From Candidatus Babeliales bacterium (GTDB lineage Bacteria; Babelota; Babeliae; Babelales; UASB340), in NCBI GenBank assembly GCA_023133515.1, contig JAGLWI010000002.1, positions 28,806 through 92,805 on the forward strand: a DNA stretch of 64,000 bases, in the 5' to 3' direction. Within the stretch, counting starts at the first letter, position 1, and each line of letters begins with the position of its first letter. The notes beneath the pieces are model-generated. The model made no database searches. It saw nothing but the letters and a program-made list of their open reading frames with translations, and was not told the origin of the DNA. A program made the position numbers and the translations under genes. Positions 14,095-18,996 of this stretch are shown here, in pieces.

Positions 14095-17000
14095 TTAAAC
14101 AACAGGCTCTTCTTCAACAGGTTCCCATTTAAGGTAGTCTGCAAATGGATATTCTTTAATCAAATTGATTTCTAATTCTTGATATTGAGTAAAGTATCTT
14201 ATTCTTTTCTTAAAATATTTCCTTATGGGATTTATAAGATCTCTTTTAATAGCCTCTTTAATTTGACCTGGATCAATAAGTTTTGCAATAATTAATTCTT
14301 TTCCTTCTTTCTTTAATTTTTCTTTTTTATAACCTTTTGGAGCAGAAAGTTGCATTGTAACAGAAACGCTTCCTTTATATCTTCCAAATTTATCTAAAAA
14401 TAAATCAAACAAATCTTTTTTTTCTCCTTTTTCTTGTCCCTTTGATAACAAAGTATAGGCATTCTGCAATGTACTCCAATTTGGATCCAAAGTCCCACTT
14501 GGCAATTTATATTTACCAAAATCTATAACTAATTGTTTTAATTTTTCCTTATCCGTGTCATCAATTTTGCCATAAGATTTTTTAAAAATATTTTGTGATA
14601 GAATATCAAGAGCTGTTTTTTTAAATTCTTCTTTTTTGTTTAATAAATTTTCAAGATTTTCTTTATTTTTCATAATCTTTTGTGCTGCTATTATAAAGGG
14701 ATGTAATCCTGTCTTTTCTTCTTTAATTTCTTCTTTCTCTGGCCCTTCCGCTTCTACAACCTTTTCTTCTGTAGGCTTTTCAATAAAAGAATAAAAATTT
14801 TTCCCATATTTTCTATGCATATTAATTGCTAAACCCTCATATAACTCATTAGCTTTCGTACCGACAAGTATATCTTTGTCAAGTATCTCATCCAATCTCT
14901 TCTCAAGATCAACAATTCCCATGCCTGTAATTTTAGTTTGTAATTTATTATTTTTATCAAGAATCAATTTAATCTTAGCTTTCTCCATATTTTTCCATAA
15001 AACATTTTTTATAAGTGTTCCAAAATTTTTACACGCCTGATTCCTCTGAGTAGTTAAATTCCAATTTGTAGTTTTTTCAAACATTCCTTTTATAGAAGTA
15101 ACTCCTCTCTTTAATGAAATAATATCTGAAAAAGCATCAATCAAATCACGCTTTATAACAACAGCAAAAACATTCAATAGTGTTTCATAATATCTTTCTA
15201 CAAAATATTGACTAATGCTTTGTTTATCATAATTTTTCAAAAATTCATTTTCTTCATCTTTTGGTTTTACAGTATTTAAAATGTATAAAAAATTATTATA
15301 TGATAATTCACTAATATTTCGTTTTTTAGCAACTTTAACTTTACCAAAAACTAGAGGTGGTGGCGGCGGTGCCCCTATTTCTTCTCCAATAGGAGGAGCT
15401 GCTGGAATTTTTTCACCTCCCATAGGAGGTGGTGGTGGAATCTCTCCCTCTTTAAGTTCAAATTCAGGCTCAACTTTCTCTTTCAAGAAGACAGGTTTTT
15501 TAGGCTTTACAATTGTTTCTTCTTTTCCTTCAATGTTTATAGTCTTTTCTCGAATCCATTTTCTTTTCTGATTATCATCCAAAACATAATTGTAAACAAA
15601 TTGCGCATTTGAAAAACAAAATAAACGATGTAAAGCTTCAATCAACAAACCAGAATAATGATCATCAAAAAATTCATCCAAATCTCTTGCTAAAAAATCC
15701 TTACTCCATGAGGTATCATAAAAATTACGCTTATAAAACTCATAATTTTTATTTTCATATTTTCCTATAAACTCAAAATCTTTATAAAGTCTACTATCTT
15801 TATCTTTACTAGTTAATTTAACATGTTCATCAAAAATGGATTTAATTTTCCGTCCTACATCAGGAATAATCGACTTAATATTTTTTAACTTATGTTCTTT
15901 TAAATAATCTGTTGATTCTTTTACCCAAAAATCTAAATAGGTTAACATCACAAAATAAGGATTAAAATAAGTAAGAATTGTAAAAAAATATTTTAATTCA
16001 TCTTCAAATATTTTCTCATATGGAGACAATTTTAAGTTTTTATAAAAATCTATAATATTAAATTTACTCTTATAAAAAAGTTCAGGAAATCTAAAAAATT
16101 GCCTTATTTTTAGTAATTGATCTCTTTTACTAAAATCATCAAATTCAAATAAAATGTCTTGCAACATAACATTAAATTTTCCTTCTTTATATTTTAATTC
16201 TTTATATTTTAATTCTTTCAAAGTTTTTGAACGAATACTTTCATAGTTATCTCTAATACTTTTTTTCTTTTTTTCCTTTTCTTCATCACTAATCTTCTCA
16301 TTACTTTTCAATTTTTTTAATTTGTAATTATAGTCTTTTAATAATTTTCTTATCTTTGCTCTGATGCTTCTTCTCCAATTATCTGCTTTTTTAAGTTTTT
16401 TATCAGAAAACAGATTTTTAAAATTTTCAATAAATAAATTTAATCTATTCTTAAAACTTTCCTGTTTTTCAGATAATAATCCATAAATGCTTCTTATCTT
16501 TTTTTCTAAAGGTTTTTTAATTTTATCTACAAAAATTTTCCAGTTCTTATCGGATATTGCTAAAAGTTTCTCTAAATACCCCCTAATTTCAAACTCTTTA
16601 CTGCTAATATTAGACATTTGTTCTTTTACAAAATCATCTATCTCTGTTTTCTCCATCTTCTTCTTTAATTCTTTTGACTCTTTTTCCATTTGTGTAAATA
16701 AATCACCTATGAATTCAATAACTTTGTTAACATTCTCAAATTTAATATCAAATTCTTTAACATCTTTTTTAAATCCATGTTTTTTAATCTTTAAAAGTTT
16801 CTTTTTTAATTTTTCACATTTTTCTTTTAATCCATCCAAACTTAAGATTTTAGTAATATCTAAAAACTTAGAAATATCTAATTTTTTAACACTTTCTTCT
16901 GCTTTTTGCTTTTCAATTTGTTCTGCAAATTTTTCACTTTCACTAACAAATTTTTTATTAATAAAATCAAAAATCTTTTTCAAAACTTCTTTAACAGTAG

Positions 17001-18996: not shown

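Follow-up and report, generated by a model that had tools for sequence, protein, structure and literature searches.

The Rickettsia surface autotransporter Sca2 is a functional mimic of formins that has no formin sequence similarity; it belongs to an obligately intracellular bacterium and has a Sec signal sequence, an exported region of about 1,500 amino acids (aa) that is mostly helical, and short proline modules (proline-rich domains, PRDs) placed between helical domains (PMC9569871). CHUP1, the actin nucleator of the plant chloroplast outer envelope, combines an N-terminal hydrophobic segment, a coiled-coil/helical region and polyproline with a compact, conserved, all-helical C-terminal domain, FH2-like and about 230–270 aa long, that lacks FH2 sequence similarity (10.1101/2020.01.14.905984). 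In formins, the FH1 domain is characterized by the type-1 motif XPPPPP (X = G, L, I or S), with short Gly-containing spacers between motifs, and the FH2 domain is about 400 aa long (PMC555941). A gene that recalls these arrangements is present in a 64,000 nt stretch of a Candidatus Babeliales (Dependentiae/TM6) metagenome-assembled genome (contig JAGLWI010000002.1, positions 28,806 to 92,805; hereafter, the window), which has a GC content of 27.3%. The open reading frame (ORF) spans 14095..18996 on the minus strand, starts with ATG and specifies a giant protein of 1,633 aa. Judged from its sequence, this is a fast-evolving gene for a predominantly α-helical protein with predicted Sec export, confined to a few Babeliales lineages as far as our searches can see. 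The protein is, at the sequence level, not a homologue of formins, nor is it a demonstrated actin effector, and a formin-like role on actin is improbable. The reading we favour, with a rough probability of 0.45, is that of a surface-displayed or secreted host-interaction protein, the proline module of which docks a host proline-recognition domain.

The translated product is identical to MCK4650612.1, annotated at NCBI as 'hypothetical protein KAT08_00395 [Candidatus Babeliales bacterium]', and the ORFs overlapping it on the plus strand are antisense artefacts of the kind usual where a gene is AT-rich and codes for much Lys. A preliminary description, made from the nucleotide sequence alone, had proposed a 1,633-aa ORF in an AT-rich, host-dependent bacterium, and both points are confirmed, by the translation and NCBI identity and by the Babeliales assignment of the genome. 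Dependentiae are widespread obligate parasites of protists, and to our knowledge their host-manipulation proteins are almost entirely uncharacterised, counts of ankyrin repeats aside. The phylum is presumed to draw its effectors from Sec-exported orphan proteins; in Chromulinavorax, signal peptides occur on 44% of coding sequences and are enriched in ORFans regarded as putative effectors (PMC6561590). Components of a type II secretion system, with two copies of gspD, belong to the TM6 core (PMC4776705). Genes for BamA and a TamB-like protein in the window indicate that the organism is diderm.

The N-terminus of the giant protein shows the n/h/c layout of a Sec signal peptide (a heuristic reading; sequence in Table 1) and is the only segment of the protein where the Kyte-Doolittle hydropathy exceeds 1.6. 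By sequence layout, its polar c-region fits cleavage. Signal-peptide-like N-termini are found in both of the orthologues described below as well (3/3 family members), which upholds the Sec signal peptide of the preliminary description as a prediction. The remainder of the protein was also described there as helical, and this receives indirect support: amphipathic-helix windows are enriched (14, compared with 1.9 ± 2.8 in shuffles), β-alternation windows are depleted (37, compared with 70 ± 15), and DSSP assigns mostly helix on two low-confidence models. These AlphaFold2 models, of the last 415 aa from one sequence only (predicted local distance difference test score, pLDDT, 34.4) and of the full-length orthologue P0002 with the window protein as a second row (pLDDT 32.1), are too poor for fold comparison. 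In the lysine/glutamate-rich (K/E-rich) segment at aa 657-964, Lys makes up 20–26% of residues per 100 aa, and the whole protein carries a net positive charge (331 K+R vs 258 D+E). It has no internal repeats and no paralogues within the window.

An exhaustive phmmer scan of 1.84 billion representative proteins, using aa 434-1633 as the query, retrieved a single homologue (P0002, 993 aa, from a JGI metagenome; E 4.5e-30, 29% identity) and no eukaryotic protein. P0002 is collinear with the window protein (BLASTP; 383-656 vs 173-433 and 965-1356 vs 555-918) and lies in the same genomic context, that is, upstream gene (330 aa), P0002, convergent MutL gene and two small genes. Anchoring on the neighbouring MutL gave 31 Dependentiae loci (referred to by L numbers), of which only one, L019 (WJLJ01000001.1, 26% GC), carries an orthologue. 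This is a 1,652-aa protein (ORF 2226-7181), convergent to MutL, and its upstream gene is homologous to the upstream gene of the window. It was found by tblastn with block A of P0002 (E 2.5e-9; the conserved blocks A to C are listed in Table 1), and it is matched also by the hidden Markov model (HMM) of the three sequences, which has only two matches among 981 ORFs. The window protein alone does not detect L019 in a pairwise search, and so more family members probably exist. A word-indexed protein search with the full-length query returned only the protein itself, and neither of two sub-queries, one made of the last 415 aa and the other of the conserved blocks aligned from two sequences, recovered its own parent protein; the negatives of this method therefore carry no weight, the prefilter being saturated by K-rich words. 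Scans of GTDB genomes, JGI metagenomes and IMG/VR with back-translated patterns, derived from the family alignment, P0002 and an alignment of the upstream-gene family, gave no match. Two further ORFs were considered as orthologues and rejected, a 923-aa ORF of L002 in which the HxxEH zinc-binding motif (HLIEH) of M16-type peptidases was recognized by eye, and a 632-aa ORF of L011 that codes for a pentapeptide-repeat protein.

On this sequence evidence, the window protein, P0002 and the L019 protein form a new orphan family of Babeliales. Its members share the signal peptide, blocks A and B, a Pro-rich tract, block C, and a site beside a convergent mutL, and they range in length from 993 to 1,652 aa through the gain or loss of K/E-rich helical segments. 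Pairwise identities are 22–29%, compared with 55% for MutL and 50–59% for the product of the upstream gene, showing that the giant diverges faster than its neighbours.

The Pro-rich tract of the window protein, EIPPPPPMGGEKIPAAPPIGEEIGAPPPPPLVFG, lies between blocks B and C. Thirteen of its 34 residues are Pro, while 20,000 shuffles of the protein gave a maximum of 10 and a mean of 4.4, and no other run of at least five Pro occurs in the 434 ORFs (168,200 residues) of the window and the 31 Dependentiae loci. The preliminary description had drawn attention to a GC-rich patch at 15355-15438. The patch is indeed GC-rich (52%), but these coordinates fall inside its true span of 15343-15444, and the number of residues that follow the tract is 415, not 419. 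Foreign origin of the patch was considered and rejected, as its GC content follows from the codons for Pro, Gly and Ala; the Pro codons are CCA and CCT, the usual ones for this genome, and give no sign of recent transfer from a host. A tandem-repeat scan found no repeat at the DNA level in the tract of the window. A second, milder GC-rich stretch (0.33–0.37) is seen near the 5' end of the gene (18450-18750, aa ~83-180), where the protein is rich in Ala, Gly and Val (…PQVASLAKVEKQLEGIFKALLAQEGVPGAENLKADVEGE…) and weakly alignable to P0002.

The FH1-like polyproline pattern that had been noticed by eye is present: the tract carries IPPPPP-MGG and APPPPP, both of the XPPPPP form. The corresponding tract of P0002 (aa 762-786) is LPPPPPPPPPMGPPGPPPP, with ALPPPPPPPPPMGPPGPPPPLDMSGKK at the position aligned to the window tract, and is likewise of XPPPPP type (LPPPPPPPPP-MG-PPGPPPP). 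In L019, the segment between blocks B and C (aa ~1270-1305) reads SVPPPAPSSGIPPAPSSGIPAAPSLGIPAASGLG, a degenerate (GIPxAPSx)n tandem repeat. A Pro-rich tract thus occupies the same aligned position in 3/3 orthologues despite their low identity, whereas its absence from orthologues had been named beforehand as a result that would count against a host-actin effector. As in the FH1 domains of Dictyostelium ForA-J and mDia1, the XPPPPP motifs (here with X = I, L or A) are joined by Gly-containing spacers (PMC555941) and the tract is N-terminal to a conserved helical region. Unlike in FH1, there are only 2–3 motifs, one orthologue (L019) has none, and no FH2 domain follows. The similarity is compositional: the Pfam model Drf_FH1 matches the tract at 16.2 bits in the full protein and 18.8 bits in a fragment, below its cut-off of 40 (E 0.01–0.0016), and does so in the window protein only, of the three orthologues.

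The region beyond the tract differs from that first envisaged. Only about 140 aa (aa 1219-1360) align across the three orthologues; the ~270 aa with which the window protein ends vary or are lacking in the other two. In P0002, the tract is followed by about 210 aa altogether, of which ~75 aa come after block C and show only a weak match, 30 aa long, to aa 1583-1612. A single, FH2-sized domain of 419 aa, as suggested in the preliminary description, is therefore not supported, and the FH2 'echoes' cited there are not conserved: LAINMHRKYGKNF has SRNFMGNVSAI as its aligned counterpart in P0002 and falls opposite a gap in L019. The FH2 model (PF02181) has no match in the window protein (E ≤ 1), its last 415 aa (E ≤ 10), P0002 or L019. 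Pfam models gave no WH2 match in the three orthologues and, at E ≤ 10, no match of any kind, WH2 included, in the last 415 aa searched by themselves. No Pfam domain was found in P0002 or L019, and NCBIfam has no match for the window protein. A phmmer search of all PDB chains with the window protein was empty, and at E ≤ 10 the three-sequence profile retrieved no TonB chain and no formin, Sca2, CHUP1, WH2 or other actin-binding chain from the PDB, its best match being ribosomal uL1 (E 0.12). Block A of the window protein matches P0002 173-433 at 29% identity (E 1e-22), the best HMMER stretch of the P0002 match falls in block B, and block C has no Pfam or PDB match. The three blocks are unrelated to one another (hhalign probabilities 0.1–0.2%), in a test for a duplication like that of NRD and CRD in Sca2.

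Selection appears to have acted on proline itself, and not on just any flexible linker, since runs of at least five Pro are otherwise absent from the sampled ORFs and yet are kept here, with native codons, in a genome of 27% GC. Together with the position of the tract between two conserved domains, the fast divergence and patchy distribution of the gene, and the biology of the phylum, this leads us to favour a host-interaction protein; Sca2 and CHUP1 serve as precedents, both having a signal or anchor, long helices and PRDs without formin sequence similarity. The giant would be displayed on the bacterial surface or released from the cell, by way of the type II secretion system core to the phylum or by association with a probably co-transcribed protein of outer-membrane type, and its target once outside would be the eukaryotic host. 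The Pro module may form an exposed polyproline-II docking site for a host profilin, SH3, EVH1 or WW domain, and the K/E-rich helices could serve as length-variable stalks that hold blocks B and C off the cell. Here, export beyond the periplasm, host contact, the ligand function of the tract and the identity of the partner are all inferred. The probability given above includes the specific actin/profilin case, which by itself we consider improbable.

Several observations weigh against such a role. A signal peptide alone delivers a protein only to the periplasm, and co-transcription with a protein of outer-membrane type fits a role in the envelope equally well. The searches of Pfam, NCBIfam and the PDB detected no eukaryote-like or actin-binding domain. 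The tract is short in all three proteins (20–35 aa), and that of L019 has VPPPAP, IPPAP and IPAAP but no XPPPPP motif, so that profilin binding cannot be a constant of the family. At the DNA level, the L019 tract (3274-3365) is a recent 24-nt tandem repeat (3.8 copies, 94% matches; each unit encodes GIP(P/A)APS(S/L)), and so evolves by tandem duplication, as simple linkers do. Finally, the family has three known members, making the sample on which conservation rests very small.

The genes around the giant bear on the main rival explanation. The upstream gene ends 14 nt before the ATG of the giant, with the sequence AAGGAG inside the gap, and L019 has the same 14-nt junction, with AAGGA. This conserved junction makes it very probable that the two genes are co-transcribed and that the giant gene is the second of a two-gene operon. 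The 542-aa product of the first gene has more β-alternation windows than its shuffles (34 vs 13.8 ± 6.8), no transmembrane helix, and a C-terminus that ends in an alternating strand (…NIWTKLNISI). Related β-rich proteins of ~513–542 aa with a signal peptide, which we call outer-membrane-protein-like (OMP-like), are encoded on the minus strand in the window (19011-20639), L019 (7157-8515), L011 (13861-15435) and L025 (529-2067), with 50–59% identity among the first three and L025 more distant. The OMP-like protein has no Pfam, NCBIfam or PDB match, and by these sequence features the family probably consists of unannotated outer-membrane proteins of β-barrel type.

The giant itself is not a fixed part of this neighbourhood. 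It is missing at the syntenic site in L002, L004, L008, L010, L025 and L031, where MutL is followed, directly or nearly so, by the epimerase and HisRS genes; in the window, these two genes lie past the mutL-adjacent cassette. In L011 (11874-16928, minus strand), from a TM6 genome (UASB340), the genes on either side of the OMP-like gene code for pentapeptide-repeat proteins with signal peptides (632 and 467 aa, PF13576), which stand in the place of the giant. As far as gene order can tell, the site resembles a cassette in which an OMP is joined by variable secreted proteins, and the giant is a lineage-restricted, variable passenger of it. Such a patchy distribution is the usual signature of proteins at a host interface and not of core envelope parts.

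The main rival explanation, which is possible if rather doubtful, is that of an envelope structural protein: a long helical rod or tether, working with the OMP-like protein either within the periplasm or at the inner side of the outer membrane and having the tract as a stiff hinge or spacer. Proline spacers of this kind are known from the linkers of TonB, TolA and OmpA, and the Ompα/Ompβ pair of Thermotoga offers a further comparison. The tight junction with the OMP-like gene, conserved in L019, fits such a role, as do the diderm envelope implied by BamA and TamB, the variation in length (993 to 1,652 aa) by K/E-rich helical segments, the Pro/Ala/Ser/Gly repeat of L019, which arose by tandem duplication and is free of polyproline, and the lack of any detected host-like domain. 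Like TonB and TolA, the giant would be an exported diderm protein with a Pro-rich segment, long charged helices and a genetic link to an outer-membrane protein. However, it is 5–7 times longer than these proteins, its tract is polyPro/Gly and not (EP)n(KP)n, and it is lineage-restricted and fast-evolving. Searches of Pfam and NCBIfam found no TonB_C, TolA, SLH, OmpA or peptidoglycan-binding domain. The giant has also diverged to 22–29% identity next to 50–59% for the OMP-like protein. It is missing at most related syntenic sites and is replaced in L011 by the unrelated pentapeptide-repeat proteins, which would be unusual for a core envelope component. A length of 1,600 helical residues far exceeds the need of the periplasm, and runs of P5 to P9 are costly at 27% GC and unique in the sampled proteomes.

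An actin assembly factor that converged on the formin design is unlikely. On this account, the tract would recruit host profilin-actin, and actin binding by blocks B and/or C would lead to nucleation or elongation of filaments on the surface of the bacterium; the protein would be a third, independent invention of a formin-like machine, its export perhaps aided by the separate OMP-like protein in a 'split' Sca2-like arrangement. The phylum Dependentiae would also gain its first described cytoskeleton-targeting effector. XPPPPP motifs with Gly spacers are found directly N-terminal to the conserved helical block of ~140 aa in two of the three orthologues, and the net positive charge of the protein suits acidic actin. 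Sca2 has a comparable plan, with a signal sequence, a helical passenger of ~1,500 aa and PRDs, and no formin similarity (PMC9569871). Given the precedent of the short FH2-like domain of CHUP1 (10.1101/2020.01.14.905984), neither the missing Pfam match nor the small size of block C is incompatible with an actin factor. Against it, the tract is the only positive evidence, L019 lacks profilin-type motifs, and the profile search of the PDB found no similarity to Sca2, CHUP1 or FH2 chains.

The resemblance to Sca2 is architectural only, there being no sequence or profile similarity. Sca2 has its own C-terminal autotransporter β-barrel, while no autotransporter domain was found in the window protein (Pfam, NCBIfam), the C-terminal tail of which is K/E-rich, helical and depleted in β-alternation; here, a separate OMP-like gene precedes the giant. 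Sca2 also has two PRDs and the window protein one, and actin activity, demonstrated for Sca2, is only a conjecture for the window protein. CHUP1 differs in that its N-terminus is an anchor, while that of the window protein resembles a cleavable signal peptide, and no F-actin-binding domain is detectable in the window protein, which is bacterial. In the WH2-based nucleators and nucleation-promoting factors (VopL/F, TarP, BimA, RickA, WASP), the WH2 motif, an amphipathic helix plus LKKV/T, stands near the Pro-rich region and as a rule on its C-terminal side. The window protein has no WH2 motif close to its Pro tract: the pattern L[KR][KRH][VTAS] occurs only at aa 130 (LKKV) and aa 868 (LKKA), far to the N-terminal side.

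The tetrapeptide LKKV, a WH2 signature, is seen toward the N-terminus of each orthologue (window aa 130-133, nt 18598-18609; P0002 117-120; L019 71-74), and around it GELKKVKVGEYF of the window protein aligns with VELKKVQNNEYY of P0002 in a weak BLASTP match. A WH2 motif at this site was considered and set aside, as ~1,050 aa separate it from the tract downstream, L019 has its copy at a non-equivalent position and no WH2 HMM supports it; it is kept only as a lead.

A genuine homologue of FH1-FH2 formins, gained by horizontal transfer from a host amoeba or protist, is effectively refuted at the sequence level: apart from the sub-threshold Drf_FH1 match and the order of a Pro tract followed by a C-terminal region, nothing speaks for it, while no FH2 match was obtained in any orthologue at permissive thresholds, the family profile found no formin chain in the PDB, no eukaryotic protein was returned among the 1.84 billion representatives, the conserved post-tract region (~140 aa, and ~210 aa in total in P0002) is far shorter than an FH2 domain of ~400 aa (PMC555941), the earlier motif echoes are not conserved, and the tract uses native codons.

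The features of the locus are collected in Table 1.

Table 1. Features of the giant gene and its immediate surroundings (nucleotide positions in the window).
Feature	Positions	Strand	Basis
OMP-like upstream gene, 542-aa signal-peptide protein, β-rich	19011..20639	-	orthologues, β-alternation, junction
Shine-Dalgarno-like AAGGAG, 6 nt before the ATG of the giant	19003..19008	-	sequence read
Gene of the 1,633-aa protein (predicted exported), stop codon included	14095..18996	-	ORF list, translation, NCBI identity, homologues P0002 and L019 2226-7181
Predicted Sec signal peptide, aa 1-26, MNMKK / FVILFLFVFLNINFF / NLRSDS	18919..18996	-	hydropathy, n/h/c layout
Block A, aa 383-656, motifs APYxFxLG, YVSDF, LRI, MWxLQGY	17029..17850	-	BLASTP high-scoring segment pair vs P0002, three-way alignment
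Helical segment rich in K/E, aa 657-964, for the most part inserted relative to P0002	16105..17028	-	alignment mostly gaps in P0002
Block B, aa 965-1153, aromatic-rich, FFRxPxxFY, LTYxDF, IIPxV, FHxxFCxSxAQF, WxRxKTI	15538..16104	-	BLASTP, alignments
Pro-rich module, aa 1185-1218, IPPPPPMGG / EKIPAAPPIG / EEIGAPPPPPLVFG	15343..15444	-	composition, shuffles, positional conservation
Block C, aa 1219-1360, SYNxFLxIL, KYF[VI]E[RK]Y, KR, GxxIxGxY, QR	14917..15342	-	three-way alignments
Variable C-terminal tail, aa 1361-1633	14098..14916	-	poorly conserved or missing in P0002; K/E-rich in L019
Terminator-like hairpin, 10-bp stem, ~120 nt past the stop codon of the giant, in the 3' end of convergent mutL	13950..13974	-	consensus scan only

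Elsewhere in the window, three consecutive large ORFs (631, 404 and 503 aa) at 281-5148 have no Pfam match at E ≤ 1e-5; their products are further orphans, and they adjoin the gene for BamA (5341-7779). A 1,204-aa protein of the MscS-type mechanosensitive channel group is encoded at 30074-33688 on the plus strand, with channel domains in its last ~200 aa only, and the minus strand at 42398-44680 encodes an RpoD-like sigma factor of 760 aa that is extended by a long stretch at its N-terminus.

The claim of an FH1-FH2 formin in a bacterium is removed by this analysis, as there is no sequence evidence for that domain pair, and the idea of horizontal acquisition of a formin falls with it, phmmer having returned no eukaryotic protein and the tract codons being native. 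What the locus offers instead is a concrete candidate, an orphan, rapidly evolving giant with predicted export, the sole recognisable element of which is a putative polyproline ligand of eukaryotic type, held at a fixed position between two conserved domains. The locus also draws attention to a conserved, unannotated family of outer-membrane type that lies beside variable secreted proteins at mutL. Were the module to bind a host proline-recognition protein, the phylum would have its first defined host-contact motif.

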